Positions 25,976-44,722 of a stretch of 57,819 bases of DNA are shown here, one piece after another (positions within the stretch are counted from its first letter, which is position 1; each line of letters opens with the position of its first letter). The notes beneath the pieces are model-generated. The model worked only from the letters and a program-made list of their open reading frames with translations. It ran no database searches and had not been told where the DNA came from. Made by a program: the position numbers and the translations under genes. The stretch is from a virus (Duplodnaviria > Caudoviricetes), in the IMG/VR virus record IMGVR_UViG_3300031965_000034, positions 1 to 57,819 of that record; one strand, 5' to 3'.

Positions 25976-26332
25976 CTACTTCAGAGCGGCGTACTCGCGG
26001 GCGATGTCGATCGAGAGTTCAGCCGGGGTCTTCGGACGGGTCTTTGTCCAGTCGATGTCGTCCTGCCTGAATGTGCCCACGTAGTCGATTGCCCGCGCCA
26101 GCCGCTCCACGTCGAGTCCGGGGGCGGCTGGGAGTGAGACGAGGGCGGCTTCGTACACTTGAGCAGCGAGGACCACATCGGTGATGCGGTCCCTGAGCAA
26201 CGACCCATCGACAGACAGGCCGCAGCCGTCCTGGACATGGATCGCCTCGCCCGTGATCTTCATGAGGGTCGCGGTGTCGAGCGCGGCCGTGATCTGATCG
26301 CGTGTTAGGGCTCGGGCTACGGGGTCAGTCAT
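25976..26332 (-). CDS. Hypothetical protein carrying repeat modules A and B
   Basis: MTDPVAR...PAAPGL; GGAGG RBS. Confidence 0.7.
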   Translation of the reverse strand: MTDPVARALTRDQITAALDTATLMKITGEAIHVQDGCGLSVDGSLLRDRITDVVLAAQVYEAALVSLPAAPGLDVERLARAIDYVGTFRQDDIDWTKTRPKTPAELSIDIAREYAALK

Positions 26333-26628
26333 CGTGCCTCCCAGTCTACCTGCACGTCCAGCGGATCGGCGATCGGCGGCTCGTTCGCGACGAGGTAGCA
26401 GCCCTCGCAGATCGTGTACGCCCCCGCCCGCTTGCCTCCGAGGTAGAGGTCGAAGTCGACGAGGCGGTTGCCCCGAAGGTCGGGCCGCCCGCACGTCCGG
26501 CAGCGCGGCACGCTCTCGCCGTTGGCGGGGTCGGCGAGGCTCTGGTCGGGGCGCTCCTCGCGGATCGTGGAGGGGTGGCGCGGCCCCGAACGAGGGTTCC
26601 ACGCCCCGACCGGGAACCGTCCTCTCAT
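26329..26628 (-). CDS. Zinc-ribbon protein
   Basis: CRTCG...CEGC. Confidence 0.6.
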   Translation of the reverse strand: MRGRFPVGAWNPRSGPRHPSTIREERPDQSLADPANGESVPRCRTCGRPDLRGNRLVDFDLYLGGKRAGAYTICEGCYLVANEPPIADPLDVQVDWEAR

Positions 26629-26662
26629 CGGGGCTGCTCGACACCGCGACGGGGGGTGATCA

Positions 26663-27190
26663 TCACGCGCCTAGACCGAGGGGCGCTTGATTGCGCCATG
26701 ACTCCCACGCCCGGGCGACGGCCCCTGAGCCCGGGAACAGGTCCACGAGCTCGTCATCCGCCTGCATTCCCAATACGTCGAAGAGCCAGTAACACAGCTG
26801 CTCAGGTTTCTGGCCCGTGAACGCGCGCCCTCGAACATGGGGTGACGGCAGCGCGAGCCAGTCACGGAGGGTCGGGCGGTCAAGCCCTCTCTTTCGCCCA
26901 CCGTAGACGATGATCGGCTCCCACGAATAGGCGGGGTTTACGCCTTTCAGGAACATCGTGTACGTCTTGGCCCACACCATCACCCGTGAGCCACCCGGAC
27001 AGAGCGGCAGGAGTTCTCTGAGATTCGTGGCCGCCATTGAGAGCGCCCAGCCGTCGGGGAACTCCGTGACGAGCCGGTCGATCAGCTGGTGATGACCCTC
27101 GACCGTGTCATAGACCCATGACTCGGGATGGTCGGGGTAACGCTTCTTGGCGACGCCGAGATAGGGCGGATCGGCGTAAGCGAATCTCAC
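26663..27190 (-). CDS. DNA amino-methyltransferase (beta-class order)
   Basis: YADPPY catalytic motif first; QKPEQ and VDLFPGSG SAM motif at C-terminus. Confidence 0.8.
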   Translation of the reverse strand: MRFAYADPPYLGVAKKRYPDHPESWVYDTVEGHHQLIDRLVTEFPDGWALSMAATNLRELLPLCPGGSRVMVWAKTYTMFLKGVNPAYSWEPIIVYGGRKRGLDRPTLRDWLALPSPHVRGRAFTGQKPEQLCYWLFDVLGMQADDELVDLFPGSGAVARAWESWRNQAPLGLGA

Positions 27191-27312
27191 GGTGCCATCC
27201 CAGCAACCGAGAACAGCCCGTAGAAGAACGCCCCCACGATGGCACCGGACACGAGGGCGAAGGCCAGAAGGGTCACGATGAGGCTCAGGACGTTGAGAAA
27301 GTCCCGGATCAA
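27187..27312 (-). CDS. Small TM peptide
   Basis: TTGA-coupled; hydrophobic. Confidence 0.45.
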   Translation of the reverse strand: MIRDFLNVLSLIVTLLAFALVSGAIVGAFFYGLFSVAGMAP

Positions 27313-27515
27313 CGGGGCTCTCCCGGTGTCTCGGCCAGAACGGCGGAGCGGTTGACGGCATCGACGAACACCATCGCGTCGCGCAGCCAGCGCGGCTCTG
27401 GCTCTGCTTCGCTGATCCGGCTGTCTTCGACGTCGGCAACAATGCGGGCGACGAGACGCCGATCTAGCCAGAGGCCCGCCCCGAACTTCACGCTCCTGGT
27501 TAGTTCTGCTCTCAT
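27309..27515 (-). CDS. Hypothetical protein ending in repeat C
   Basis: ...LAETPGEPR. Confidence 0.6.
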   Translation of the reverse strand: MRAELTRSVKFGAGLWLDRRLVARIVADVEDSRISEAEPEPRWLRDAMVFVDAVNRSAVLAETPGEPR

Positions 27516-27649
27516 GATCTCGCTCCGCACCACACACATCGATACCGAGTGACGCCCCAGCGGACGCGCTCCCAGCTATGTCCGGTCGTCTGAATGCAAG
27601 GAACCGCACGGGGCCTGTCTTGGGCTACGGGGTTGGTCACGGGGGTCAT
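27512..27649 (-). CDS. Small zinc-finger protein beginning with repeat A
   Basis: C...GHSW...CVWCG. Confidence 0.55.
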   Translation of the reverse strand: MTPVTNPVAQDRPRAVPCIQTTGHSWERVRWGVTRYRCVWCGARS

Positions 27650-28002
27650 CGCCCGTTGATCCGATCGACTTCGGCGCCACCGGCCTCGGTATAGGCGGGG
27701 ACGAACCCGACTTCCTCTAGGCGCTCGTCCAGCGAGTCCTCGTCCGGCGCCCACGCCATCTTCGTCGGGGCCTCAAGGACCCAACCGTCACGGTCGAAGT
27801 CGAAGTGGACGATGAGCGTATTGGCTGCCCGCACGTCGTCTAGGTCGATGCGAACGTATCGGGGCGCACGATTCCGATACAGATCGACGTGGGCGGCGCT
27901 CATCTCGTCCATCCCGACGGTGAACAGGCCGACACCCGCGGTCGCGAAGAAGGTCAACCCTGCGAGGGCCGCGAGCTCGCCGTGGGACAGGCGGCTACTC
28001 AT
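27646..28002 (-). CDS. Hypothetical protein
   Basis: DVRAA...FDFDRDGW motif. Confidence 0.7.
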   Translation of the reverse strand: MSSRLSHGELAALAGLTFFATAGVGLFTVGMDEMSAAHVDLYRNRAPRYVRIDLDDVRAANTLIVHFDFDRDGWVLEAPTKMAWAPDEDSLDERLEEVGFVPAYTEAGGAEVDRINGR

Positions 28003-28186
28003 GGGGCTCTCCCGGTGTCTCGGCCAGAACGGCGGCAGGATCAGGGTCGTTCTCGGCCGGACCGTAGATCAGGTCAGCCGCCTTCTGAGCCTCGGCCCAT
28101 AGGCGGGCGTCCTCCTCCTCGGACTGCGCCTCGAACGCGCTGATCTGGACCGATCGCATCCACAGGAACCGCTCGCGCTCATGCAT
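27995..28186 (-). CDS. Hypothetical protein ending in repeat C
   Basis: ...LAETPGEPHE. Confidence 0.6.
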   Translation of the reverse strand: MHERERFLWMRSVQISAFEAQSEEEDARLWAEAQKAADLIYGPAENDPDPAAVLAETPGEPHE

Positions 28187-28481
28187 CTGGCTCTCCCGGT
28201 GTCTTGGCCAGAGCGGCGCGGGCACGCTCAACGACGAGCGGATATGCCGGGGTCGGGCTATCGAACTCATCGAGCAGCGCCATCAGCGCCTCTCGGAGTC
28301 CGGGGGCGGCTGGGGGTGGGACGGGGGCCGGGGCTTTGTCGAGCGTCGCCAACCAGCGAGCTTCCCGGCACTCCGACATCGACACGGACGCAGCGCATGA
28401 CCACCCACATGGCTGGTGGTATGAGCGGAGATCGTCCAGTTGTTTGGCGCTCCACGGTTCAAATCGACGCTCGTCATTCAT
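28179..28481 (-). CDS. Hypothetical protein with repeats B and C
   Basis: ...PVPPPAAPGLREAL...LAKTPGEPDA. Confidence 0.65.
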   Translation of the reverse strand: MNDERRFEPWSAKQLDDLRSYHQPCGWSCAASVSMSECREARWLATLDKAPAPVPPPAAPGLREALMALLDEFDSPTPAYPLVVERARAALAKTPGEPDA

Positions 28482-29100
28482 GGGGCTCTCCCGGTGTCTC
28501 GGCCAGAGCGCGGACAAGGGCTTGGAGCGCGGCGGCGGGAGTCGAGCCGTAACCCGCAATCGCGATTGGCCGCGGACCCACCCACGCCTCGAAGGCATCG
28601 TCGGGACCGAGGTCGGGACGCTGTTCAAGATGCAGGACGCGCCCCAACGGCCGCGCCGCCTCAGCTTCTCGCCACGCCTCGTCGAGGGTCGGGAGTCCGG
28701 GGGCGGCTGGGGGTGGGACGGTCCCGGTCGCTTCGGCTCGAAGAACGGCGCGCAACTCAGCGTAGGCGAGGCGGCGATCCACGAGGCGATCCCGGTTGCC
28801 CGCCCTCGTCTTGCTGCCGCTGATGTTCCCGGCTGGTGTCGCGGCGACCGCCCGGGCTGCCCGGAGGAGGCGGTTCAGCCGGTCCTCGACGTGGCCGCGA
28901 AGGAGAATCGTGTCAACGGCCAGTTGCTCCGCCGCCAGCACGTCGGGTGGGAGGACACCGGCTGCTCCGCAATGTAGAGGACAGTCGAACGAGTGACCAT
29001 CGCGGACGAACTGAGCGTCACAGACCGGGCAGATGCCGAGGCTCGCCGCAATCAGAGCTGCGGTCCTCTCGGGCCTGTCTCGGGCTACGGGGTCGGTCAT
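28474..29100 (-). CDS. Mosaic protein with repeats A, B and C
   Basis: MTDPVARDRP-CPVC...-VPPPAAPGL-LDEAW...TPAAAL-LAETPGEPHE. Confidence 0.7.
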   Translation of the reverse strand: MTDPVARDRPERTAALIAASLGICPVCDAQFVRDGHSFDCPLHCGAAGVLPPDVLAAEQLAVDTILLRGHVEDRLNRLLRAARAVAATPAGNISGSKTRAGNRDRLVDRRLAYAELRAVLRAEATGTVPPPAAPGLPTLDEAWREAEAARPLGRVLHLEQRPDLGPDDAFEAWVGPRPIAIAGYGSTPAAALQALVRALAETPGEPHE

Positions 29101-29378
29101 CGGGATACCTCCAGAGCAGCGCGGAGGGCGGCGAAGTCCTCATCGCTGATCCACCAACCATCGGTTAGGGGTGCGGCCCGAAGGGCAACGATGTGGTCCG
29201 CCGCTTCCTCGATAGCCCGATACCGCGCTGCCTCGTCCGGGATGAGGTAGACAGAGCCGTCGGCGAGGATCAGAGTCGCTTCGCGTTTGTCGCGGTCTGG
29301 GCTGAAACCATGACTACCGTTGCGGCACAGAATGACGTGGAGCCTCTCGGCTAGTGCCTGTGTCCCGTCAGTCGCCAC
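29097..29378 (-). CDS. Hypothetical protein
   Basis: Coupled ORF; GTQALA N-terminus. Confidence 0.6.
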   Translation of the reverse strand: MATDGTQALAERLHVILCRNGSHGFSPDRDKREATLILADGSVYLIPDEAARYRAIEEAADHIVALRAAPLTDGWWISDEDFAALRAALEVSR

Positions 29379-29652
29379 GGTGAACCTCCCACGGACCGAC
29401 GCGACGCACTTGGACGGTCGGCCCTTCGATTACGGGCGGCATACAGGAGTAGAACGGGCCATCGGGCCCCCCGGACTGGTAGCCGTGGCCCTCATCGCAC
29501 ATCCAATGCAAGTCGTCGTCGGTCTCCCCCGCGACCCTCGCCGCCCTTCGTTCGGCTGCCGCAAGCGTCACGAATGTGACCCACTTCCGACGCCGTCCCT
29601 CGCGCTTCCAACCGACGCGGTACTCGGGGGCTAGTGCCTGTGTCCCGGTCAT
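29368..29652 (-). CDS. Hypothetical protein
   Basis: Coupled ORF; GTQALA N-terminus (19-bp repeat shared with next gene). Confidence 0.65.
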   Translation of the reverse strand: MTGTQALAPEYRVGWKREGRRRKWVTFVTLAAAERRAARVAGETDDDLHWMCDEGHGYQSGGPDGPFYSCMPPVIEGPTVQVRRVGPWEVHRGD

Positions 29653-29731
29653 GCTTCCACCCCTTCGTTGACTTCGGCGAGATACGCCCGGATGGCGGTT
29701 CGTTGTACCTTCGTCGGCGGTCCGAGATTGC

Positions 29732-30400
29732 TCATCCCTTGGTCCACGGCTGCGCGACAGCGATCTGGAAGGACCACATCTCGAGGACGTCGCCGCGGAG
29801 GTAGCGGAGTTCTAATCCGACCTTCCGGCCATGGCAGGTGTCGCACAGGGCAACCAGGTTCTCGGGCCGGTTGGCCTCGTCTGCCGTGTCGAACGTCCGC
29901 CACGGGATGATGTGGTCGACGGGAAGCCGCCTCAGGTTCTCAGCTTCCGTCTTGCCGCAGCGTCGGCAGCGGCGACCGTCACGTTCCCGGATGGACTCCG
30001 CGAGCTGCGGCCATCCTGGCCCTCGATATGAGGTCAGGTGACCGCCCCTATAGGACGGCCCGTCTGCGCCAGACTGCCGGATGCCGTTGCACCTGATGCT
30101 GCACGTCGGCGTGCCTTTGACGCGCGCCACGACCGCTCGAATCCGCCTGAACGACCGGCCACACACGGGACACGTCAGCTCCAAGAAGAGCGGTCGCCGT
30201 GCAGCCGCAGTTCGATAGCACGCCATCGAGCAATACTTGGCTGCCGATCTCGCTATCGCGGACGGCGGCGGCGCAAAACGGACACCGCACTCAACGCACT
30301 CTCGCATCCGCTTTGCCTTGGCGGGCTCGTGGTTGTGCCTCGTGCAAGCTGTCGCGCCCCAAGAGATCGGCTTGCTGCAAACCACGCACGCGCGGCTCAC
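29732..30400 (-). CDS. HNH endonuclease with zinc-finger repeats
   Basis: CxxC...YCS repeats; RERDGRRCRRCG...VDHIIP...NLVALCDTCH. Confidence 0.9.
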   Translation of the reverse strand: MSRACVVCSKPISWGATACTRHNHEPAKAKRMRECVECGVRFAPPPSAIARSAAKYCSMACYRTAAARRPLFLELTCPVCGRSFRRIRAVVARVKGTPTCSIRCNGIRQSGADGPSYRGGHLTSYRGPGWPQLAESIRERDGRRCRRCGKTEAENLRRLPVDHIIPWRTFDTADEANRPENLVALCDTCHGRKVGLELRYLRGDVLEMWSFQIAVAQPWTKG

Positions 30401-30834
30401 GCCTTCTTGCCCTCCGCCGCTGTCCGCCTCTCGGCCAGTTCATCGGGCGTCATCTCCCGCATCGGCTGGCCCCCGCCGTGCTCGTGTGGTTCGACGATCC
30501 GGCAGCCGACCATCTCGCAGCGGTAGTAGACCCAGAATGACGCCATCAGCTCCAGGGTCTCGGGATCGACAGGTGCCTCGATGGGCGCTCCGCTCGGCTT
30601 GGACGGCACATGCGCCTTGGCGTCGAGGTCGGCCAGCGCGTACCGACCGTGAGCGTCGAGACGGAGCAACAGGTCGTCGGCGCACTCGATGCGGTGGCCG
30701 TCACTCGGCTCGCGCCACTCAGATGAGAAGCGGTTGTTGCGGTAGCTCATCAGAGCCTCGCGGAGGACGAGCGCCTCGGATGGGTTGATTGCGAGTTTCA
30801 CCACAGCCTCCCGGTCTCGGAACCTTTTGAGCAT
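30397..30834 (-). CDS. Hypothetical protein
   Basis: Coupled ORF; exact start uncertain. Confidence 0.55.
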   Translation of the reverse strand: MLKRFRDREAVVKLAINPSEALVLREALMSYRNNRFSSEWREPSDGHRIECADDLLLRLDAHGRYALADLDAKAHVPSKPSGAPIEAPVDPETLELMASFWVYYRCEMVGCRIVEPHEHGGGQPMREMTPDELAERRTAAEGKKA

Positions 30835-31340
30835 GTCGCGCAGATTCCAGAAATGCCCGTCTCACAGAGGTTGACGTTCCATCCCATCAGGACGGAAGGG
30901 TGTGACGCAGCGGCCTGTCGGCGGTTCGGACGAAGGACGCCGAACTTGACGCGGCCCCGGATGAACAGGATCGAATCGGCCGTCTCTGCGGTCTGTTGAA
31001 AGACTTTGGTGTCTGTGTGGGCGGGCATGAGCAGGACGACGTAGCTCCCGGCCGCGCCCGCCTCGATGCAGCGGAGGACCCAGCGTTCGCGGGCCTTGCC
31101 GTAGGGCGGGTTCACGAAGATGGTGGCCGCGTCCCACGGCTCCGCCGCGCCGTCGACCGGCGGCGCATAGAAACGATCGGCGTCAGTCGGGTTATCCGGT
31201 TCCGTGCAGGGGTCGAGTTCGATCCCGCCAAGAATGTATTTGATTGGCTCCAAGATGTAGGGTGGTGTCAGTTGCACCTGTCGCGGATCGGCCTCGTCTC
31301 GATACCGGAGCGCATTGCTAAACCGCGATGCGGCGCTCAC
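30798..31340 (-). CDS. Phage N6-adenine DNA methyltransferase (Dam_phage-like)
   Basis: LTPP...IELDPC...FVNPPYG...PAHTDT...GRVKF. Confidence 0.88.
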   Translation of the reverse strand: MSAASRFSNALRYRDEADPRQVQLTPPYILEPIKYILGGIELDPCTEPDNPTDADRFYAPPVDGAAEPWDAATIFVNPPYGKARERWVLRCIEAGAAGSYVVLLMPAHTDTKVFQQTAETADSILFIRGRVKFGVLRPNRRQAAASHPSVLMGWNVNLCETGISGICATCSKGSETGRLW

Positions 31341-31525
31341 CGGACGCCCATTCGGAGATCGGTCTTGACGTGCTCCAACGTGCAAAGATGGAGCGCCGTG
31401 GGCATGTGGGGCTGGCCCCAGACGTCCCGGCAGACGTGCTCGGGGTCGAGCCGGTTGAGGATGCAGCGCTTGTCACGAGCGAAGACCTCGGCTCGGACTT
31501 CGGAGGTGACGCGGTCCCGGCTCAT
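31337..31525 (-). pseudogene. Truncated HNH-like ORF
   Basis: VRAEVFARDKRC...TLEHVK, stopping before the N/CxxH half. Confidence 0.45.
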
Positions 31526-32388
31526 GCCACGACCTCGACCTTCGGACGCGGGCCGTAGAGGGCTTCGTCCCATTCACCCGTGAAGCGATAGCGTTCGATG
31601 GCCCGGGCCATCACCTGGGTCTGGATTTTCTCTCGGCGCTTCTCTCCGGCGTGACCCGCCTCGGCCTTGCGAGCCTCGGCCTCGAGCCGACCGTTGACCC
31701 GTGAGAGGAGCGTGCCGGGGTTGGCGTCCTTGGCGTGCTCCTCCCGGAGGGCCTTGGCGGCAGGGGCAAGGCCGAACGTCGATTCGATGCGGTCGAGCCA
31801 GTCGAGGGCGGCGGGCTTGACGGTCGCGGCTTTCGTCAGGCCGCGGTAGAGCGCCCACAGGTCGTCGTCGGTTTCCTTCCCCGGACCCCTACCTTCCGTG
31901 GAAGGGAGTTGATTAGAGTTGATAGGAGTAGAAGGCTGGACCAGCTTCCCCAGCGGGTCCAGCGCGCTGGACGTGAATTCGTGTTCAGGGTCCAGCGGAG
32001 TACCAGCGTCATCCAGCGGGCCCAGCGTGCTGGTATCGCTGGGCAGCAGCCGGCCCTTATCGTCCCTCTTCCCCTGAGCGGCGCGGGCCTGACCGGCGAT
32101 GACCTGGGGGCTCTTGGGTGCCCACGCATCGAAGGGCTCGGGGCGGAACCCGTCATCGATGAGGAGCCCGACTGCGAGGAGGTCGGGCAGGAACCGGGAG
32201 CCGGTCTCGGTATCGAGGTCGAGTTCGGGACGACCGTTCCTCCGGGCGGCGGCGAGGGCGATCCAGTACGCCCCGACGGCGCTGTTGAAGTCGTCGGGAT
32301 CGGGCAGACGCCGGGCGAGCTTACGGAACTTGCCGTCCGAGAGGAAGGCGGTATCGCCGAGGAAGAAGCCGGCGGGTCGACGCGGCAT
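31522..32388 (-). CDS. Putative replication initiator protein
   Basis: N-terminal D..F..D.KFRKL domain, disordered linker, helical C-domain; position in early operon. Confidence 0.55.
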   Translation of the reverse strand: MPRRPAGFFLGDTAFLSDGKFRKLARRLPDPDDFNSAVGAYWIALAAARRNGRPELDLDTETGSRFLPDLLAVGLLIDDGFRPEPFDAWAPKSPQVIAGQARAAQGKRDDKGRLLPSDTSTLGPLDDAGTPLDPEHEFTSSALDPLGKLVQPSTPINSNQLPSTEGRGPGKETDDDLWALYRGLTKAATVKPAALDWLDRIESTFGLAPAAKALREEHAKDANPGTLLSRVNGRLEAEARKAEAGHAGEKRREKIQTQVMARAIERYRFTGEWDEALYGPRPKVEVVA

Positions 32389-32669
32389 CAGCCGGCCCTC
32401 GCCGCGTCCAGCATTTCCGCCAACTCCTGAGACCGTCGCCAGCGCCAGCGTCTGGCCGCCAGACGATTACGCTCCCGCCTTCCAAGCGGCGTCTTCGGCA
32501 GGCGCACGGGCTCACCGGGCTCACCGTTGCACCTGCCCTGCGCCCGCATCGCCTCGGCCCACGCGAGCGGGCAGTCCTGGCAGGGCGTCGTCGCGGGGTT
32601 GCTCGTGACGAGTGCGTTCATGGCGTGCCAGCCGGCGAGCTCGTCCGGGGTCATGCAGAGCGGGATCAC
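32388..32669 (-). CDS. Cys-containing hypothetical protein
   Basis: PLCM...PCQDC...GRCNG. Confidence 0.65.
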   Translation of the reverse strand: MIPLCMTPDELAGWHAMNALVTSNPATTPCQDCPLAWAEAMRAQGRCNGEPGEPVRLPKTPLGRRERNRLAARRWRWRRSQELAEMLDAARAG

Positions 32670-33235
32670 AGCGAGAGGGCCATCTGCGCGGGCGTCTCAC
32701 GCAGCACGCGCCAGTTCCGGCCTGAGCAAAGGTGGCTGATCGTGGCGCGGCAGACTCCGAACAGGTCCGCGATCGCTTGGATCGTCAGTCCTTGTGATCG
32801 GAGCGCTAACGCCAGTCGTGCTTGGTCCTCGGTCAACTTGGCCGAGGGTGCGGAGGCCCCGGCTTGAATGCGGCGACGGGCCTTCGCATCGTTCGTGTTG
32901 TCCTGGTAGGTCCCGAGGAGTAGATGATCCGGTCGGACACAGGGCGGGTTGTCGCACTTGTGGCGAACGATCAACCCATCTGGAATCTGTCCGTGCGTCA
33001 GGATCCACGCGACACGGTGGGATGACTCCTGTCGTCCTCGGCACTTGACGCGCCCATATCCAGCACCAGACCCGTAGATCCAGCACCCAGCACCGCGCTT
33101 GACCCTTGACCAGAAACGCTCGGACTCGGACGGTCCGGTGGGCTTGTCAGTCGACCCGAACCGACGCAGTCGATACAGATGCATGCCGCAGAACCCATGC
33201 GCCGAATGCGGACGCTCGCAGAGCGAGCAAGTCAT
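32666..33235 (-). CDS. HNH homing endonuclease (HNH_3) with C-terminal HTH
   Basis: SHRVAW...VRHKCDNPPCVRPDHLLLGTYQDN; AKLTE HTH. Confidence 0.92.
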   Translation of the reverse strand: MTCSLCERPHSAHGFCGMHLYRLRRFGSTDKPTGPSESERFWSRVKRGAGCWIYGSGAGYGRVKCRGRQESSHRVAWILTHGQIPDGLIVRHKCDNPPCVRPDHLLLGTYQDNTNDAKARRRIQAGASAPSAKLTEDQARLALALRSQGLTIQAIADLFGVCRATISHLCSGRNWRVLRETPAQMALSL

Positions 33236-33432
33236 CGCAGCACCGCCGCATCCCTGACCACGCGATACCGGGCCGGCCTACCCGACGCCTCGATGACGTA
33301 GCCCGCCGCCCGGAGGTCGCTGATCCGCGCTCGCGGGTTCGACACGAAGGGGTACAGGCCGTAGGTCAGGTCGAGCATGGTGCAGTCGGGGTGTGAGCGG
33401 ATGTAGTCGAGGACCCGTTCGGCTTGAGTCAC
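33232..33432 (-). CDS. Small winged-helix DNA-binding protein
   Basis: TQAERVLDYI...RARISDLRAAGYVI. Confidence 0.75.
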   Translation of the reverse strand: MTQAERVLDYIRSHPDCTMLDLTYGLYPFVSNPRARISDLRAAGYVIEASGRPARYRVVRDAAVLR

Positions 33433-33821
33433 AGCGAATACCTCCGTCGCCGTGCCCAGGGAACGAGGTGGGGTTTCGGGCAAGCGTGCCAGCCCCATCG
33501 TTCGATGCAGCACGCCGAGCAACCCAGATGACGCTTTGGCCCGAGGATCGGCGCTGAGAGCGCCCGCAACTCATCCGGGAGTCCGGGGGCGGCTGGGGGT
33601 GGGACGGGGGCGAGGATGGCGGGGTCCCATTGCTCACGGAGCTCCGCCACTCCAAGCCTCGGATGCACGAATGGTGGCCTCTCCTCAGCGGAATGGGCTT
33701 GCCGCTGCCGGTGATACACCACCAGTGCCTCATGCTCCGCAGTCGTGAGAGTGCAGATGCCGCCCCGGTTGTGAGTCATCGCTTCTGCGAGCTTCTCAGC
33801 AACCTCGCGCCACCCGATCAC
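33429..33821 (-). CDS. Hypothetical protein with repeat B
   Basis: PVPPPAAPGL followed by a Cys-rich segment. Confidence 0.55.
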   Translation of the reverse strand: MIGWREVAEKLAEAMTHNRGGICTLTTAEHEALVVYHRQRQAHSAEERPPFVHPRLGVAELREQWDPAILAPVPPPAAPGLPDELRALSAPILGPKRHLGCSACCIERWGWHACPKPHLVPWARRRRYSL

Positions 33822-39431: not shown

Positions 39432-39763
39432 CGGGGGACCTCTCGCTCACCGTGTGTGCGCTCGTGCTCGGCCTGTGCGACACCGTCCCGCCAGCCCCGC
39501 TGGTACGGCGCGGTTCGACCGACATCGTCGTGCGGGTAGAACCGGATGCGACAGTCAGCACACGCCCACAGGACAGCGCCCGGTGCGAGCGCATTGCTGA
39601 ACGTCACGACCTGTTCATGGCGGCAGGGGAGGGGAGCGGTATCCAGAACGGGCTCCAAAACACCATCGGACGGCAGCGGGTGAGAGCCGACTGGGGCGGT
39701 CGCCGCCGCACGAACCGGGGTGTCCTGCGAGGCCGTGGAGAGGTCTGCAAAACCTCTATTCAT
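39428..39763 (-). CDS. Hypothetical protein probably starting inside attP
   Basis: ATGAATAG overlap with upstream stop; CRH...CADC; start uncertain. Confidence 0.45.
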   Translation of the reverse strand: MNRGFADLSTASQDTPVRAAATAPVGSHPLPSDGVLEPVLDTAPLPCRHEQVVTFSNALAPGAVLWACADCRIRFYPHDDVGRTAPYQRGWRDGVAQAEHERTHGEREVPR

Positions 39764-39789
39764 CGGTTCGAATCCGATCGTCGCCTCCA
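39738..39789 (+). other. attP core: 3' two-thirds of a tRNA-Cys(GCA)
   Basis: Anticodon arm GAGGT-CTGCAAA-ACCTC, T-arm ATCGG-TTCGAAT-CCGAT, CGTCGCC-T-CCA; no 5' acceptor strand or D-arm upstream. Confidence 0.85.
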
Positions 39790-39968: not shown

Positions 39969-40162
39969 CCGCCCGCCGCCAATCGTGCCTCTTCGGCATG
40001 CTTGCGGGCGTTGAGTAGGGCCATGATGACGGCGCGTTCGTCGGGGTCGAGCGAGTCCAGCCGCGGGGGGCCATCGGTGCACACATGCTCGGGCGCATGA
40101 GGATGGGGCTTGTCGCAACTGCATCGGTACATGCGTGGGACTCCGTGAGAACAGGTGCTCAT
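39965..40162 (-). CDS. Small hypothetical protein
   Basis: Coupled ORF; Cys/His-rich N-terminus. Confidence 0.55.
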   Translation of the reverse strand: MSTCSHGVPRMYRCSCDKPHPHAPEHVCTDGPPRLDSLDPDERAVIMALLNARKHAEEARLAAGG

Positions 40163-40896
40163 GCCGCGAACCTCACGTCATTCAGACAGGCTGCATGTCG
40201 TTCAGCCAGGATCTCGATCGCCTTTTCGTGGAGTGCGAAGGTCCGGGCACTTCCCTCTAGGCCCTTCATGAGCAGAGCCATCCGCTGGTGATGATCCTCG
40301 ATGCTCGCGGCACCCCATGTCGTGGCACGGCCGTCGCCGAGTGAGAACGAGGAGCCGAGCAACTCCACGGTGAGCTCCAAGCGGACGTTCTGACGGAAGT
40401 CCTCCATGAAGGCCGCGATGCGTCCCCAGCCATACCGGCGGTCGTATTCGAGCGGATCCTCTTCGGCGAGCCGTTCTCGCTCCGCCCTGGATTCTGCGTC
40501 GGCCTTCCGCTGTTCCTCGTGGCGCTGACCTTCGGGTGTCTCAGTCACCCAGCGTCGATACTCCCGCGAGTTGCGGGGAGCGAACCATGGGCTCGCCGCC
40601 CATTCCGCGCGCCTAGCCTCCCGCTCTGCCTCATTGGCGGCCTGACGTTCAGGCCACGATGCAATCGCCGCTTCCCTCTCGGCCGCCAACGTGGCGCGAT
40701 GCTCAATCTCACGCGCCCGACCTCGCCGTCGCCACTCAATCCGGTCGGCCAGCAGCGCCGCCAACAGGGCTGTGCGCTCGCTAGCGCGCAGCGTCCTCAC
40801 GGCCTTGTCAGCGACCCACTCCGGGGCATGGTCGGGGAACTCATCGTCGAAACGTGCGGCCAGCAGTCCGACGGTAAGATCAGGGCTTTCGCTCAC
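40159..40896 (-). CDS. Hypothetical protein
   Basis: 245-aa coupled ORF; coiled coil. Confidence 0.7.
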   Translation of the reverse strand: MSESPDLTVGLLAARFDDEFPDHAPEWVADKAVRTLRASERTALLAALLADRIEWRRRGRAREIEHRATLAAEREAAIASWPERQAANEAEREARRAEWAASPWFAPRNSREYRRWVTETPEGQRHEEQRKADAESRAERERLAEEDPLEYDRRYGWGRIAAFMEDFRQNVRLELTVELLGSSFSLGDGRATTWGAASIEDHHQRMALLMKGLEGSARTFALHEKAIEILAERHAACLNDVRFAA

Positions 40897-41432
40897 GCCA
40901 GCGCCTCCTGCATCCGCTCCGCGGCATCCCGCGAAAGCTCGGGGACCCGGTGCCCTCCGAGTGCCGCTTGGAGCCGGTTCGCCGCGTCGACCTTTCGATG
41001 CCAGCGGAGATACTCGGAGGCGGCCAGGGCGATCTCGGGGCTATCCGACATAAGAGCGATCGCCGTGTTGCATCGAGAGCAGAGGAGCGCCCGCGACCGG
41101 GAACTGTCGTGGTCGTGATCGATGCTCAGACGACGCACTCGACCCTTCGCGCTCTTGGAACTCTCCGGCCGGCGGCAGATGGCACAAAGCCCGCGCTGTG
41201 CTCGGAAGAGTCGCTCGTACTCATCTCTCGGCAAGAGCGTGACGGTATGGATACCAGCATCCCGGCGGCGTTGCGTGTTCAGACGCTTCAGCTCATGGGC
41301 TCGGGCCTTCTCTTCCGGGGTCCGCTTCTGGCGACGTGCCCGCTCCTGTTCCAACTGGCGAGCCTTGACGCCCGGACGGCGGCGATACTCGGCCATATAC
41401 AGCCGGCGGCGCTCAGTCTGTTCGGGCGTCAT
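40893..41432 (-). CDS. Endonuclease VII-domain protein (probably a free-standing homing endonuclease)
   Basis: QRGLCAIC...LSIDHDH...RALLCSRCN. Confidence 0.88.
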   Translation of the reverse strand: MTPEQTERRRLYMAEYRRRPGVKARQLEQERARRQKRTPEEKARAHELKRLNTQRRRDAGIHTVTLLPRDEYERLFRAQRGLCAICRRPESSKSAKGRVRRLSIDHDHDSSRSRALLCSRCNTAIALMSDSPEIALAASEYLRWHRKVDAANRLQAALGGHRVPELSRDAAERMQEALA

Positions 41433-42691
41433 CCGAGGGCCTCTTGCATCTTGTCGGCTGCTTCCCGGGCCATCTCAGGGATACGCCCGACGTAGATGTC
41501 CATCGTGACCCTCACGGTCGAGTGGCCCAAGATCCGACTCACGACCGGCAGCGGCACCCCGACCCCAAACAGGACGGTCGCGCACGAGTGCCGGAGGTCG
41601 TGCAAGCCAACCCGAGGCAGCCCCGCCGCCGCCAGGTCCGCCCGCAGTCGCGGCAGGAGGTTCGTCGCGTGGTGCGGCATCCCCCGCTCGGTCGTGAAGA
41701 CCAGCCCCTCGAGGCCAGTCGCGCCGCGGTCGGATGCCTGCTGCTCGCGCTGCGTTCGGAGGGCGTCGACGCCGAGCTGAGTCAGCGGGATCGTTCGCCG
41801 GCCCTTGGCCGTCTTCGGTGGGCGGAGCTGCCACTCGCCGTCGACCCGCTGGAGGGCGTGGCGGACGGTGATCGCGGCGGAAACACCTCGTCCACCATCG
41901 TCTGCGACAACCCGGCTTTGACCGCCTCCGACCGCATCGCTTCGTAGATCCGATCCTGTATCTCGCGTTCTAGCTCCGGCGGCCAGCGTCGCGGCATGAG
42001 CGGCATCGGTCCCTCCAAAGGTGACGTCCCCCCACGCCAGCCCCAGCGCCTCGGAGATCCGCAGCCCGGTCGTCACGAGGATCGTCCAGAGCGGCCCGTA
42101 GCGGGTGCCACGGGTGCTGTCGAGGAGGACGCGGGCCTGGGCGGCGTCGAGGATGGGGCGCTCGCGGTGGGGGAGTTTCGGTGCTTCTGCGAGAGCCGCA
42201 ACGTTTCGAGAGACAAGTCCATCTCGGACAGCATCGGCGAGTGCCCGGCGGAGAGTGGCCCGATGATGACGGCGTGTTTGTCCGTCGAGTACGGGTAGAC
42301 GTTGACGACCGTCCATACCGCCGCTTCGATGGTCCGCCTCTTGGTCCAGGAACTCACGAACGTCCCCGATTGACAAGTCGGACAACCGACGAGCACCCAA
42401 TATCGGCGCGATGTGGACGCGGATGATCGACTCGTGCTTTCGCCACGTCGCCGGAGCGAGTCGAGGACGGACATCACTCACCCACCGCTCTAGGTAGTCC
42501 CCAAGCCGGATACGGCTCGCGTCGATCGCCTCGGCGCTGAGGGCGCGCTGCATGGCGCGGAGTTCGGCGAGGGCTTCGGGCCGCGTCTTCGCCTGCCGCC
42601 GTCGGCGACGTCCGTCGGGCAGACTGATCGCCGCCACCCAGACGCCCCGCGCCTTGTGCCAGTACAGGGACCCCTCGTGGTGCGAACGCAC
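41429..42691 (-). CDS. int: Tyrosine integrase
   Basis: EGSLY arm-binding start; TGLRISE, KT, HDLRH, LGHS and Y catalytic residues all present. Confidence 0.95.
   Translation of the reverse strand: MRSHHEGSLYWHKARGVWVAAISLPDGRRRRRQAKTRPEALAELRAMQRALSAEAIDASRIRLGDYLERWVSDVRPRLAPATWRKHESIIRVHIAPILGARRLSDLSIGDVREFLDQEADHRSGGMDGRQRLPVLDGQTRRHHRATLRRALADAVRDGLVSRNVAALAEAPKLPHRERPILDAAQARVLLDSTRGTRYGPLWTILVTTGLRISEALGLAWGDVTFGGTDAAHAATLAAGARTRDTGSDLRSDAVGGGQSRVVADDGGRGVSAAITVRHALQRVDGEWQLRPPKTAKGRRTIPLTQLGVDALRTQREQQASDRGATGLEGLVFTTERGMPHHATNLLPRLRADLAAAGLPRVGLHDLRHSCATVLFGVGVPLPVVSRILGHSTVRVTMDIYVGRIPEMAREAADKMQEALG
41782..42006 (-). CDS. Candidate overprinted ORF inside int (+1 frame)
   Basis: GGAGG RBS; amphipathic LEREIQDRIYEAMRSEAVKAGLSQTMVDEVF coincides with an insertion in Int. 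Confidence 0.55.
   Translation of the reverse strand: MPLMPRRWPPELEREIQDRIYEAMRSEAVKAGLSQTMVDEVFPPRSPSATPSSGSTASGSSAHRRRPRAGERSR
42073..42477 (-). CDS. Candidate overprinted ORF inside int (+1 frame)
   Basis: GTGA-coupled to xis stop; genome-typical codons; CPTC; protein-like core. Confidence 0.55.
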   Translation of the reverse strand: MMSVLDSLRRRGESTSRSSASTSRRYWVLVGCPTCQSGTFVSSWTKRRTIEAAVWTVVNVYPYSTDKHAVIIGPLSAGHSPMLSEMDLSLETLRLSQKHRNSPTASAPSSTPPRPASSSTAPVAPATGRSGRSS

Positions 42692-42854
42692 GCCCGGTAT
42701 CGTACCCCCCGAGGTAGGCCCGGAGCGCGTCTTCGGAGAACCGCAGCGCCCGCCCGAGCCGGGCATGGGGAAGCCGGCCCGCTCGTGCCTCGGCGTACAC
42801 CGTGTCAGTCGAGACACGAAGGAACGCGGCGGCTTCGCGGGCGTTGAGCGTCAC
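42474..42854 (-). CDS. xis: Excisionase-like HTH_17 protein
   Basis: LNAREAAAFLRVSTDTVY...GRLPHARLGRALRF; GTGA-coupled to cro. Confidence 0.85.
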   Translation of the reverse strand: MTLNAREAAAFLRVSTDTVYAEARAGRLPHARLGRALRFSEDALRAYLGGYDTGRAFAPRGVPVLAQGAGRLGGGDQSARRTSPTAAGEDAARSPRRTPRHAARPQRRGDRREPYPAWGLPRAVGE

Positions 42855-43072
42855 GCCACGGCCCCATCGACCACGTCGGGGTGGAGGCGCGACAGCGCGC
42901 GGCATAGGTCGATGACTGACGCCTGCCAGTCCTCAGGTGCCCGTCGCTGGCCCTTGCTGTAGGCATAGACGGTGTTGACGGATCGCCCGGTGGCGGCGGC
43001 AATCTGGGTGAGCGTCAGGCCGCTGTCGTGAACAGCTCTGCGCCACGGGTCCATCTCGCTGCGTCTCTTCAT
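42851..43072 (-). CDS. Cro-like HTH protein
   Basis: GLTLTQIAAATGRSVNTVYAYSKG; divergent from repressor. Confidence 0.8.
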   Translation of the reverse strand: MKRRSEMDPWRRAVHDSGLTLTQIAAATGRSVNTVYAYSKGQRRAPEDWQASVIDLCRALSRLHPDVVDGAVA

Positions 43073-43080
43073 GGCACAGA

Positions 43081-43110
43081 ACAGTAACGGTACCGGCACA
43101 GGTCTGTCAA
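43081..43110 (-). promoter_or_regulatory. Leftward early promoter, probably near-leaderless cro mRNA
   Basis: TTGACA-18 nt-TACTGT, with ATG 8 nt after the -10 box. Confidence 0.7.
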
Positions 43111-43166
43111 CCCGATTGCACAGCGCGTTCGCGCTCAGGCGGTGCAGCGGTGCACCGGAATGATGG

Positions 43167-43195
43167 TTGCATTCTTGTACCGCGCCCGGTACAGT
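43167..43195 (+). promoter_or_regulatory. Repressor promoter with overlapping palindromic operator
   Basis: TTGCAT-17 nt-TACAGT; TGTACCG-CGCC-CGGTACA at 43176-43193. Confidence 0.7.
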
Positions 43196-43234
43196 TCGCG
43201 CCTGAGCGCGCGTCTAGGTCAGGAAGTACCCCCG

Positions 43235-43669
43235 TTGACTGACGACCAGATCAAGCCCGGCGAGCGGTTCAAGCGCGCGGTCTTCGCGGCTGCCGCCTAC
43301 CAGGGCATCAAGGGCTCGGAACCGGCGATCGTACGCGCGACCGGCGTAGCCCGGAACACGCTGCGCCGACTGTTCGCGGGTCAATCGCCAGATGGGCAGA
43401 CCCTGGAGAAGATCGCGGCGGGCCTCAATACAACGCCGGGACGCCTACTTGCAGCGAGGGAGGGGCGGTCTACTGGCGGTCTAGAGCAGATCGCTTTGGA
43501 AATCCAGTGGCTCCGCGAGGCACTCGTGCCGGGTCTGCTCGATGATGTCGTCGAGGCCGGCGACGTGGAAGGAAGTCGTCGACTTCGTAGCCGAGCTCGA
43601 TCAGGGCCACCCCGGCCCGCTCGACAGCCTGGGCGACGTCCTCTCGCAGACGGAGCAGAACGCGGATGA
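43235..43669 (+). CDS. CI-like XRE-family repressor
   Basis: AIVRATGVARNTLRRLFAG.SPD..TLEKIAAGL; AGGAAG RBS with TTG start. Confidence 0.8.
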   Translation: MTDDQIKPGERFKRAVFAAAAYQGIKGSEPAIVRATGVARNTLRRLFAGQSPDGQTLEKIAAGLNTTPGRLLAAREGRSTGGLEQIALEIQWLREALVPGLLDDVVEAGDVEGSRRLRSRARSGPPRPARQPGRRPLADGAERG

Positions 43670-43810
43670 CTCGCGGATCAGACCACACGGATAAGACCTC
43701 CGCGCGCGCTCGGAATGGATGATTCCGGCGGGGGTTCCCGGACCTCCGCGATGAAGGGCTAAGGGTACGCCGTGAGGGAGCGGGGGACAGTGGGGAAAAC
43801 CCTCACGGAC

Positions 43811-44722
43811 ATGCCGAAACAGGCCCCCGAGGGGGCGGTCCGGGGTACGTTCGCCTGGCGCGTGCTGGCGCCGCTCCTCAGCCTCGGCGGCTACGCCCTG
43901 ACTCTCGGCATCCTCGCCTGGGGCTTCAGCACGGGCGCGTTCCACATTCCCGGCGGCGACGCCCTGATCTGGGACCGGGTAGGGGATGCCCTCCGCTCGG
44001 GCGCCGAGGTCTACGTCCGAACCCCGACGCTCTCGGACACCTTCTGGTACTCCCCGCCGTGGGCCGTCCTGTTCGCGGTCGTCTCGTGGTTGCCGGTGCA
44101 GGTGACGGCCCTCGCCATCATCGTCTGCGAAGTCGCGTCCCTCCGCTACATCGCCGGCTCGTGGCTCCGGGTCGGCTACCTCTGCTGGTTCCCGCTCGTG
44201 GCCTTCGAGCTGCCGTCGTCGCAGTTCAACCTCATCATGGCCGCCGCCATCGCCGCTGCGCTCCGGGGTGATCCGCGGCTCGCGGTCGTGATGGGCACAG
44301 CAAAACTAGGCCCCATCCTAGCGATCCGCGACGGCTGGCGTCGGGCGGTGCCGGTGGGGCTGCTGCTCTGTGTGGTCACGATCCCGTGGCTCGGGCTCTG
44401 GCCGGCGTGGGTCGGGCACCTCATGTCGAGCTACGGGGCGAACCTCGCGCCGGGTGCGACGATCCTCATCCCGTTCGCACCCCGACTCATGGTAGCTCTG
44501 GCACTGGTCCTGTACGGCCGCCCGTGGGCGCGGGGCCTCGCGGCGATGGTCGCGGTGCCGTCGCTCTACTGGGTGTCGGCGGTCATGCTGCTCGGGCTCG
44601 CTGGCGATGCTCGTCGGGGTGGTGCCGTTGCTCAGGCCAGCAGCCCGCTCACCAGTCCCCCGGGAGTTTTAGGTAGGTCACGGTGCCCCGACCCTCCGCC
44701 TGTCCGACGCCCTGGATCTTGA
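43811..44722 (+). CDS. Multi-pass membrane glycosyltransferase (GT-C, GT87/DUF2029-like)
   Basis: GGD..I, FWYSPPWAVLF and AKLGP motifs; many TM helices. Confidence 0.7.
   Translation: MPKQAPEGAVRGTFAWRVLAPLLSLGGYALTLGILAWGFSTGAFHIPGGDALIWDRVGDALRSGAEVYVRTPTLSDTFWYSPPWAVLFAVVSWLPVQVTALAIIVCEVASLRYIAGSWLRVGYLCWFPLVAFELPSSQFNLIMAAAIAAALRGDPRLAVVMGTAKLGPILAIRDGWRRAVPVGLLLCVVTIPWLGLWPAWVGHLMSSYGANLAPGATILIPFAPRLMVALALVLYGRPWARGLAAMVAVPSLYWVSAVMLLGLAGDARRGGAVAQASSPLTSPPGVLGRSRCPDPPPVRRPGS

Follow-up and report, generated by a model that had tools for sequence, protein, structure and literature searches.

A candidate gene overprinted on a phage integrase gene, with its start codon at the stop of xis

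Does the integrase gene of this phage encode one protein, or does it also carry a second, overprinted gene in another frame? The window analysed here is the full 57,819-nucleotide stretch of IMG/VR record IMGVR_UViG_3300031965_000034 (Duplodnaviria; Caudoviricetes). In it, the tyrosine integrase gene int lies on the minus strand at 41429..42691, counted from its first in-frame start (GTG 42691), and its frame is open from 42817. An initial annotation, made from the letters alone, proposed true dual coding within int: a 134-residue ORF in the +1 frame, hereafter ORF-A, translated in coupling with xis. The identity of the host gene is secure. Its product matches Pfam Phage_integrase (PF00589; 6.1e-17, 62.4 bits against a gathering threshold of 27.1) and, at its N-terminus, the SAM-like domain Phage_int_SAM_3 (PF14659; 6.8e-10, 39.5 bits against 22.6), and 2197 of 8000 scored candidates are homologues at E<=0.001, with a top identity of 72%. 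R213, K295, H366, R369, H392 and Y402, which we take to be the catalytic R-K-H-R-H/W-Y set, occupy invariant columns of a 12-sequence alignment.

The int gene belongs to a leftward operon of tightly joined genes. A cro-like helix-turn-helix gene (82 aa, 42851..43099, minus strand; Pfam HTH_31, 2.4e-6) heads the operon and diverges from a Cro/C1-type HTH_3 gene (43142..43669, plus strand). The cro-like gene is joined to xis by a GTGA junction, in which its TGA and the xis GTG share bases, and at the far end of int the ATG of an endonuclease VII gene (40893..41432, minus strand; Endonuclease_7, 2.1e-16) overlaps the int TGA in an ATGA junction. Directly upstream of int, xis (42474..42854, minus strand) encodes 126 aa from GTG 42854, with an alternative in-frame ATG upstream at 42905, and its product contains an HTH_17 domain (1.2e-12; 48.3 bits against a cut-off of 27), as does the xis ORF of the related locus L001. 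The xis frame has no stop of its own before int: it enters int, overlaps about 72 of its codons and ends at TGA 42476..42474, so that the last 75 or so residues of its product, a basic tail rich in Arg, Pro, Ala and Gly, are read from the int +2 frame. This read-through is present in 7/7 loci that have xis upstream.

ORF-A begins where xis stops. It spans 42073..42474 on the minus strand in the int +1 frame, covers int codons of about 73-207, encodes 133 aa from its ATG (134 from GTG 42477) and terminates at TGA 42075..42073. In the hexamer GTGATG (42472..42477, minus strand), the xis TGA lies across both possible ORF-A starts, GTG 42477..42475 and ATG 42474..42472, just as the initial annotation had described for a xis frame running some 70 codons into int. 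The sequence GGTGGG lies 6 nt upstream of the ATG. With this stop/start overlap and the preceding GGTGGG, the ORF-A start has the form of a usable one, and its coupling to xis is putative.

To place these features in an evolutionary context, we compared int and its flanks with related loci. Alignment-based locus scans yielded 101 (80 kept), 18 and 25 loci; a DNA search of a phage collection with the int/xis stretch gave no match, and single-protein locus scans of viral and genome contigs gave no relative. Full-length clade members with DNA are L001, L002, L003 (= L081) and L082 only, L008 being partial and P0002-P0120 available as proteins only. Comparisons of the +1 frame thus rest on the window and four close int homologues (45-72% identity), five DNA sequences from about three lineages. 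The TGA/ATG junction is present in all five, in two codon contexts (AGT GAT and GAT GAT): TGG GTG AGT GAT is the same in the window, L001, L002 and L003, and L082 has TGG CTG GAT GAT with the overlap kept. The junction is built with T-ending codons, which are rare in this genome (T at 0.07 of reference third positions).

The composition of int changes sharply within ORF-A. Third-position GC (GC3) is 0.80-0.97 over most of the gene and falls to 0.40-0.55 in 90-nt windows at about 42365-42155, while GC at int position 1, which is ORF-A position 3, stays at 0.86-0.93 across the dip. In a hypervariable, low-GC3 core (42167..42400, minus strand) the +1 frame scores best, with a codon-usage log-likelihood per codon of +0.13 versus -0.33 for the int frame. 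These values bear out the early impression that int codons here become A/T-ending while the +1 frame uses codons typical of the genome. The dip is shared by 4/4 close homologues, and +1 is the best-scoring frame in 5/5 cores. Such inversions are infrequent: only 33 of 5401 windows of 150 nt, drawn from 249 ORFs of high GC content in the window and the loci, combine in-frame GC3 <= 0.55 with GC1 >= 0.80, and three of them fall in this int and two in that of L082. The signal does not extend throughout ORF-A, which resembles a shadow frame in its first 25 and last 45 residues.

Two readings of this composition have to be weighed. Across the five cores, int position 3 contains A at.18-.28, C at.29-.42, G at.18-.25 and T at.18-.27, which resembles reference position 2 (A/C/G/T.25/.28/.21/.25) and not reference position 3 (.05/.50/.38/.07). 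A position-2-like composition is what a requirement on the +1 protein predicts. Alternatively, ORF-A could be a functionless shadow ORF, and the core a hypervariable mosaic that confers specificity on int and is exchanged between relatives or driven to diversify by selection on att-site or arm binding; codon bias would be relaxed there, and third positions would therefore drift close to the non-coding baseline. Position-3 GC in the cores (0.50-0.63) is at or below the 0.60-0.70 of stretches outside high-GC3 ORFs, which fits the first reading, but the difference is small, which fits the second. What a shadow ORF leaves unexplained is why codon bias should be lost only here, given that GC3 is >= 0.82 in 46 of the window's stop-to-stop ORFs of at least 120 codons, and why the conserved TGA/ATG junction should be made from rare T-ending codons.

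The openness of ORF-A in the window alone is unremarkable (P = 0.13-0.29 by synonymous resampling), as a shadow ORF would readily have it; its signal comes from composition and from relatives. The initial annotation had named stops in close int homologues among the observations that would count against it. In 4/4 homologues with DNA, all found through Int alone, no +1 stop interrupts the homologous stretch; in L082 the ORF ends 39 codons sooner, within a low-complexity tail. Besides int itself, +1 is the sole frame that is stop-free in all five sequences. The probability of an open frame in the individual homologues was 0.028, 0.0006, 0.037 and 0.26 under a simple synonymous shuffle, 0.081, 0.0115, 0.048 and 0.12 under a context-aware null, and 0.04, 0.12, 0.20 and 0.15 under a piecewise context-aware null. 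Under this last and most conservative null the product over the four is 1.4e-4 (4.9e-4 for the core alone); across nulls, four open frames out of four have a probability of 1.4e-4 to about 5e-6 if the lineages are independent, and Fisher's p over homologues ranges from 0.002 to 0.05. In bulk the synonymous shuffle was calibrated, with 259 +1 stops observed versus 247.7 expected in 46 ORFs. Of 15 NTA codons in these regions, every one has C or T as its next base, versus 56% in control genes. A shadow ORF would have to be open in these relatives by chance, made easier by an Int sequence with few places where a +1 stop could arise.

Two more distant loci, L083 and L084, serve as a natural negative control for ORF-A. 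Their integrases are 33-35% identical to that of the window, and xis reads through and stops at the same column, without an ATG. Their GC3 is 0.83-1.0 with no dip (the exception is the last window of L084, at 0.77), and their +1 frames carry stops at codons 107/116, 165, 173 and 192. Four further high-GC relatives also show no comparable GC3 dip. The lack of a dip in distant high-GC integrases, and the joint presence or absence of dip, ATG and open frame, are not explained by a shadow ORF. ORF-A is open in relatives beyond expectation and has coding-type composition, two of the properties expected of a same-strand overprinted gene.

Evidence at the level of the protein points the other way. 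The synonymous constraint anticipated for a dual-coding stretch is absent: in the core, third-position synonymous identity is 0.29-0.54, near saturation. For the close pairs window-L001 and L002-L003 it is 0.32 and 0.29 there, compared with 0.64-0.94 downstream and 0.57-0.80 upstream. The core is the most variable segment of int, with amino-acid identity between window and L001 of 0.67 versus 0.87-1.0 downstream and 0.77-0.88 upstream. Nor is there +1-specific amino-acid conservation, since identity in the +1 frame (0.260 against a null of 0.202) is matched by the +2 control (0.265 against 0.214), and no purifying selection on the ORF-A protein is visible among the five sequences. ORF-A was also considered as a putative small protein of the zinc-ribbon type, with two conserved metal-binding pairs. 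A first CxxC is present in 8/8 +1 ORFs, but a Val pair in the +2 frame is equally invariant; both follow from the same conserved G. A second pair, CxxH, occurs in 4/8 (His alone in two more), the window having SAGH, with no Pfam match.

Searches with the ORF-A product were similarly unrevealing. Pfam and PHROG assign it to no family at E <= 1, a word-indexed protein search gave 208 word-sharing candidates of near length and no match, and its score in the Atlas (0.83) is at chance level. Three weak phmmer matches are +1 ORFs on other contigs that were gene-called by two archives. Single-sequence AlphaFold2 prediction gave a mean pLDDT of 45.6, no residue at or above 70 and no confident fold, as might be expected of a shadow ORF. 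Among the listed runs holding the stretch no RNA run is on record, and four marked 'RNA?' contain under a tenth of the words. Contigs from soil and sediment metagenomes keep the flanks and replace about 42165..42470, one of them joining 202 other letters in place of 244; this replacement of the core between kept flanks, the saturated synonymous sites and the unconserved +1 protein are all as a mosaic segment of int would have them.

Together, the open frame, the junction and the composition of the relatives uphold the idea of dual coding, while the absence of synonymous constraint and of +1-specific conservation does not. As the frame is open and coding-like but its protein is unconserved, a gene within a gene is credible and unproven. 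We put the probability that ORF-A is a translated, selected overlapping gene coupled to xis at about 0.5, judging from these sequence features; a shadow ORF in a mosaic core is a serious alternative to which we assign a clearly lower probability.

If ORF-A is such a gene, it would overprint the core-binding domain of Int and be expressed from xis by termination and reinitiation. On an early leftward transcript carrying the cro-like gene, xis, int and the endonuclease VII gene, ribosomes finishing the cro-like gene would enter xis at the GTGA overlap. They would then translate xis past the start of int, staying in the int +2 frame for its first ~72 codons, terminate at TGA 42476..42474 and reinitiate at the overlapping ATG to read 133 codons in +1. 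This would yield a small protein that evolves fast and is protein-like in its middle 75 residues, with a CxxC motif that is followed in most relatives by a (C)xxH. Ribosomes crossing the initiation region of int out of frame would, as a side effect, reduce the amount of Int made relative to Xis while the operon is on. Given this anatomy, the interference with Int synthesis that was suggested at the outset as a result of xis-coupled translation is plausible.

A variant of this mechanism is that the +1 frame is translated and its peptide is irrelevant, the act of translation setting the Int:Xis ratio or preventing polarity on int and the endonuclease VII gene. Conservation of the stop/start junction and the open frame, alongside an unconserved +1 protein sequence, would fit, as would the position of the xis stop: it stays at one column in three contexts (AGT GAT, GAT GAT and GCT GAC), and L083 and L084 keep it despite the great rarity of T-ending codons there. 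We nevertheless regard this variant as improbable. It does not explain A/T-rich int third positions, since G/C-ending codons would make it easier to keep +1 open, and the position-2-like composition noted above is the prediction of a requirement for the protein itself.

Less probable still, to the point that we give it little weight, is that the pattern reflects assembly or frameshift errors, a decaying int whose frame has changed, or a +1-frameshifted Int isoform. The window int has ATA at 42700..42698, where relatives have their ATG start, and it contains two insertions that are unseen in 11 aligned homologues. One, correctly noted in the initial annotation, is a short insertion of 12-16 codons (SGGMDGRQRLPV) in a core-binding domain loop (42290..42325, minus strand); the other, placed by alignment, adds 46 in-frame codons to the catalytic domain (41885..42022, minus strand). 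Against decay or error, int is open for at least 422 codons and homologous through the core (ATLRRALADAVRDGLVSRNVAAL), the six putative catalytic residues are in place, and four independent assemblies show the same pattern. By eye, no slippery heptamer is seen at the junction.

Other causes of the GC3 dip were also considered. An antisense ORF was rejected, as stops interrupt every antisense frame at positions that differ among the five sequences. So was an attP or tRNA fragment within int: the sole tRNA in the window (Cys, 39719..39789) has no convincing repeat to int, and a 36-nt, 78% repeat at 40007/42247 is probably due to chance. Rfam gave nothing meaningful over 40500..44000, no promoter-like site was found, a single terminator-like site is within shuffle expectation, and RNA folding over 42170..42480 is ordinary (z = -0.18).

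The 46-codon insertion contains a second +1 ORF, better marked than ORF-A and overlooked in the initial annotation. The insertion is missing from 11/11 aligned homologues, including two at 72% identity, is junk-like when read in the int frame, and its region (41873..42023/42031) is skipped by contigs of runs X3 and X4. Within it, ORF-B (41782..42016, minus strand) has a ribosome-binding site of its own, GGAGGG at 42016..42011, followed by ATG 42006 and 74 codons (42006..41782). Its first 42 codons are coding-type (GC1/2/3 = 0.67/0.40/0.81), and single-sequence AlphaFold2 predicts two helices with pLDDT of about 90 at residues 11-40. Relatives have different cassettes at this site, and their int genes contain four other +1 ORFs, each with GGAGG-ATG and coding-type periodicity. 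Pfam and PHROG offer no family for ORF-B either at E <= 1; a word-indexed protein search gave two candidates of near length and no homologue; Foldseek of the model against the PDB gave a best E of 2.7; and the best Atlas score, 0.89 to chorismate-mutase-like helical fragments, is at chance level. On the Pfam, PHROG, Foldseek and Atlas results, we rejected its assignment as a ribbon-helix-helix DNA-binding protein. For the counterparts in relatives, four resembling ORF-A and four resembling ORF-B, the only matches were three below threshold (phrog_1734, 0.11; DUF1990, 0.047; DUF6894, 0.15). By its signals, ORF-B is a clearer candidate for a nested gene than ORF-A.

A broader and more tentative proposal, which we think unlikely as a whole, is that int genes of this clade are used in three frames: the xis tail in +2 over the arm-binding domain, ORF-A in +1 over the core-binding domain, and exchangeable mini-genes like ORF-B in loops, making int a protected landing pad for accessory proteins. 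Each mini-gene would bring its own ribosome-binding site, and Int would be read through it as a junk-like insertion. The accessory proteins would be fast-evolving and made with Xis at induction, for example as directionality helpers or counter-defence factors.

If real, ORF-A would be a case of overprinting, an arrangement of a kind already known. In the spanin genes of phage lambda, Rz1 is embedded in the +1 frame of Rz and encodes a conserved lipoprotein that is the partner of its host gene's product. Like Rz1, ORF-A is small and lies on the same strand, wholly within a larger gene, in its +1 frame and with its own start; unlike Rz1, it is an orphan of unconserved sequence, its start overlaps the stop of xis, a third gene, and it is hosted by an integrase gene (the Rz/Rz1 spanins are among the subjects of PMC5295617). 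Overprinted genes of viruses, in which a new frame arises over an older gene, have been detected through ORF length under codon or synonymous permutation (a review, PMC8227390, and a method paper, PMC6188560). ORF-A was likewise tested by permutation of synonymous codons. In overprinted pairs, atypical codon usage usually marks the younger frame; in this case it is the older int frame that is atypical and the ORF-A frame that is typical, and int lacks synonymous constraint.

In high-GC Pseudomonas aeruginosa, long overlapping ORFs that annotation pipelines exclude are antisense and have evidence of translation and purifying selection, according to PMC8850804. ORF-A resembles them as a long alternative-frame ORF in GC-rich DNA and differs in being same-strand, known from sequence alone and free of visible purifying selection. 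The xis/int overlap is likewise distinctive, the corresponding overlap in lambda being short. In actinomycete integrative elements such as pSAM2, xis immediately precedes int within a single operon (PMC2440964); unlike there, xis here lacks its own stop and overlaps int by ~72 codons in all seven loci, and none such is described in the available text of PMC2440964. The closest cultured phages are Mycobacterium phage Giles and its relatives. The Giles tyrosine integrase is 32.7% identical over its full length, but its xis (gp30) diverges from int (gp29) with no overlap.

Should ORF-A prove untranslated, the locus would serve as a warning that a hypervariable, mosaic stretch of a gene can show both a local inversion of GC3 and an open frame that is conserved. 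If ORF-A and ORF-B are translated, one tyrosine integrase gene would give rise to up to four polypeptides in three frames, from coding that annotation pipelines never report, and insertions in Int loops would be hosts of nested genes and not features of Int. The overlapping rather than the ancestral frame would then have the typical codon signature, which bears on how overprinted genes are dated, and out-of-frame ribosome traffic from xis would offer a testable mechanism for setting the Int:Xis ratio at induction.

Between 43.1 and 40.9 kb, the window (67.7% GC over 57,819 bases) carries a minus-strand operon, transcribed leftward, comprising a cro-like gene (43099..42851; HTH_31), xis (42854..42474; 126 aa from GTG 42854; HTH_17), a tyrosine integrase gene, int (PF00589 and PF14659), and an endonuclease VII gene (41432..40893). 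Neighboring genes in the operon are joined by GTGA or ATGA overlaps, and a Cro/C1-type gene (HTH_3) starts divergently at 43142. In int, an ATA at 42700..42698 occupies the position of the ATG start in related integrases; the base that yields ATG is present in contigs from two sequencing runs (X4 and X5), and the first in-frame start in the window is GTG 42691, in a frame open from 42817. A single tRNA-Cys gene (39719..39789, +), flanked on both sides by phage-like ORFs, lies 1.6 kb past the point where int ends; attP was not located in the window, and no intergenic space adjoins int. Two repeat families occur in the 26-34 kb region (26094..33611 and 27314..28514), one with a 53-nt unit and a conserved GGAGTCCGGGGGCGGCTGGGGGTGGGACG core (4 copies), the other with a 33-nt unit (4 copies, including one identical pair).

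The initial annotation proposed that int contains an overprinted ORF, coupled to xis and representing true dual coding. Its observations hold, and its interpretation is partly supported. Reading of the sequence confirmed that xis enters int without a stop of its own, continues for ~72 codons in the +2 frame relative to int, and ends at a TGA (42476..42474) overlapping GTG 42477 and ATG 42474 of the +1-frame ORF, here ORF-A (42474..42073, −; 133 aa from the ATG). The low-complexity xis tail is basic.

A search with the Int protein scored 8000 candidates, of which 2197 reached E ≤ 0.001; the best matches share 72% identity and, at 362-368 aa, fall short of the window's Int by ~55 aa. Four full-length close relatives have DNA available (L001, 72%; L002, 51%; L003, identical to L081, 53%; L082, 45%), together with a partial member, L008. 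Because all were found through Int, the state of the +1 frame did not bias the choice of these four. In each, xis is read into int from upstream as far as a stop at a shared alignment column, overlapped by a +1 ATG. Read-through of ~70 codons into int in +2 occurs at all seven loci with xis upstream (window 42854..42474; L001:72-881; L002:1-372; L003:2829-3218; L082:2572-2988; and, in two distant integrases, L083:2676-3218 and L084:2589-3218), ending at one alignment column, where a T-ending codon precedes Asp (AGT GAT, GAT GAT or GCT GAC). The xis ORF of L001 includes an in-frame fusion to an HNH_3 endonuclease domain (7.6e-11) ahead of the point where it enters int.

Third-position GC is 0.80-0.97 across most of int and falls to 0.40-0.55 between ~42365 and 42155, in line with the A/T-ending codons that the initial annotation had noticed; within this dip, GC at int position 1, which is ORF-A position 3, is 0.86-0.93. 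In the core of low GC3 (42400..42167), the A/C/G/T composition of int position 3 (.22/.34/.18/.27) matches the genome's second codon position (.25/.28/.21/.25) and not its third (.05/.50/.38/.07). Codon-usage scores per codon are +0.13 in the +1 frame versus −0.33 in the int frame, and Int carries an insertion of 12-16 codons here (42325..42290) relative to 11 aligned homologues. Such inversion of periodicity is rare, occurring in 33 of the 5401 150-nt windows taken from 249 high-GC ORFs, a count of matches not individually inspected. All four close relatives show the dip at the same stretch, with +1 as the best-scoring frame of the core. We consider it highly improbable that the arrangement is an artefact, reflects decay or encodes an Int isoform.

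The distant integrases L083 and L084 (33-35% identity) serve as a natural control. Their xis extends ~71 codons into int and stops at the same column, the stop being built from a T-ending GCT before GAC in genes whose GC3 is otherwise 0.83-1.0. Both lack the +1 ATG and the GC3 dip and have +1 stops (codons 107/116, 165, 173 and 192); thus ATG, dip and open frame are all present together or all absent. No comparable dip occurs in four further high-GC relatives (L005, L007, L099 and L103).

Other causes of the dip found no support: RNA folding gave z = −0.18, no promoter, terminator or Rfam family was found to account for it, and an antisense gene was rejected, no antisense frame being open in all five sequences. 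Purely neutral relaxation of codon bias is possible, and position-3 GC is 0.50-0.63 in the cores versus 0.60-0.70 in stretches outside high-GC3 ORFs; however, relaxation offers no reason for bias to be lost only in the core and only in this clade, and leaves stop avoidance and the junction unexplained.

As anticipated under dual coding, the +1 frame is free of stops in all four close relatives, to the same TGA in LVTTG (L082 ends 39 codons earlier), and none of the remaining alternative frames on either strand stays open across all five sequences. When synonymous codons were resampled with the Int protein kept, the probability of an open frame was 0.13 for the window and 0.028, 0.0006, 0.037 and 0.26 for the homologues in a simple within-region shuffle; 0.29 and 0.081, 0.0115, 0.048 and 0.12 after correction for codon-boundary context (154 control ORFs); and 0.26 and 0.04, 0.12, 0.20 and 0.15 when separate 5', core and tail codon usage was added. 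If lineages are independent, openness in all four homologues has P = 1.4e-4 at its most conservative, or 4.9e-4 when only the core is counted. Within the core, sister pairs share a synonymous identity of only 0.29-0.32, which makes independence a reasonable assumption, but the relatives with DNA cover only about three lineages. Fisher's method gave 0.002 to 0.05. In bulk, the shuffle was calibrated at 259 observed versus 247.7 expected +1 stops over 11,062 codons. Most of the signal comes from NTA codons, which within these regions are followed by C or T in 15 of 15 cases versus 56% in control genes.

The comparative data do not show the synonymous constraint expected of dual coding. Third-position identity in the core is 0.29-0.54, close to saturation (0.32 for the window and L001, 0.29 for L002 and L003), versus 0.64-0.94 downstream and 0.57-0.80 upstream, and in amino-acid sequence, too, Int is least conserved in the core. 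Contigs from four other soil/sediment runs keep both flanks and replace ~42165..42470, in one contig joint with 202 letters instead of 244. Flanks of the variable segments (42165..42025 and 41880..41540) are near-identical at synonymous sites in members whose overall identity is just 51-72% (third-position identity 0.84-0.95 over int residues 177-207, window versus L001-L003), which suggests recent recombination or mosaic structure. On a plausible, if doubtful, alternative account, ORF-A is a shadow ORF that has no function and lies in a hypervariable, mosaic segment.

Conservation specific to the +1 protein is also lacking. Mean pairwise +1 identity was 0.260 against a resampling null of 0.202, and the +2 control frame showed an equal excess (0.265 against 0.214), so the +1 excess reflects residual common ancestry; an invariant +1 CxxC and an invariant +2 Val pair share the same conserved G's. 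ORF-A matched no Pfam or PHROG family and nothing in a word-indexed protein search. A phmmer search of 1.84 billion representatives gave three weak matches (2e-7 to 4e-5) and no others, all three being predicted +1 ORFs from other int-like contigs, 1.8-6.3 kb long. An AlphaFold2 model built without an alignment had a pLDDT of 45.6. That the act of translation matters and the peptide does not seems unlikely to us.

A second +1 ORF, ORF-B (42006..41782, −; 74 aa), is a clearer nested ORF than ORF-A. It lies at an in-frame Int insertion of 46 codons (42022..41885) that is absent from 11 aligned homologues, including two at 72% identity, and from contigs of two runs (X3 and X4). The int frame reads the insertion as Ala/Gly/Arg/Asp-rich filler. 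ORF-B starts with GGAGGG, 4 nt and ATG (42016..42004); its first 42 residues have GC1/2/3 of 0.67/0.40/0.81 and a codon score of +0.20 versus −0.39 in the int frame, followed by a shadow-like tail to 41782. AlphaFold2 predicts two helices (residues 11-40, pLDDT ~90). Family and fold searches gave no match, leaving a first impression of a ribbon-helix-helix protein unsupported. At this Int site, L002, L003 and L008 have different insertions, each with a GGAGG-ATG start and coding periodicity in +1, and L008 has one further downstream insertion with a +1 ORF (window 42022..41782, −; L002:786-1022; L003:3641-3841; L008:176-421 and 500-712). The L002 and L003 cassette ORFs share a CGH...HD...C pattern. 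The cassettes differ among relatives, and the Int frame reads them as junk-like loops. Since +1 coding in the integrase is therefore not a one-off, ORF-B and these cassettes raise the prior for ORF-A.

Overprinting is known in viruses, and lambda Rz1 is an embedded +1 gene. ORF-A would be of this kind, but synonymous constraint, one of its defining features, was not observed. The closest cultured phages are Giles-like (Int identity 32.7%), in which xis and int are divergent, whereas here they share an operon; DNA of the int/xis stretch had no match in the phage collection. In full-text literature searches, which covered main texts, and in passages from an AICE review, we found no integrase hosting a nested gene, no case of xis overlapping int by ~70 codons and no stop/start junction that couples xis to a third frame.

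Together, composition, junction and the open frame in relatives favor dual coding, whereas synonymous constraint and +1-specific amino-acid conservation do not. The best-supported reading, with a probability of about 0.5, is that ORF-A is translated by coupling to xis: its anatomy, composition and comparative pattern are observed, and its translation, coupling and function are inferred from them. On the early leftward transcript, ribosomes would carry xis translation past the int start and through the arm-binding-domain codons, terminate at 42476..42474, and reinitiate at the overlapping ATG to produce ORF-A. The product would be a small, fast-diverging protein; a need for protein-like residues in its middle part would account for third positions of int having a position-2 composition. 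Ribosomes crossing the int start out of frame would also reduce Int relative to Xis.
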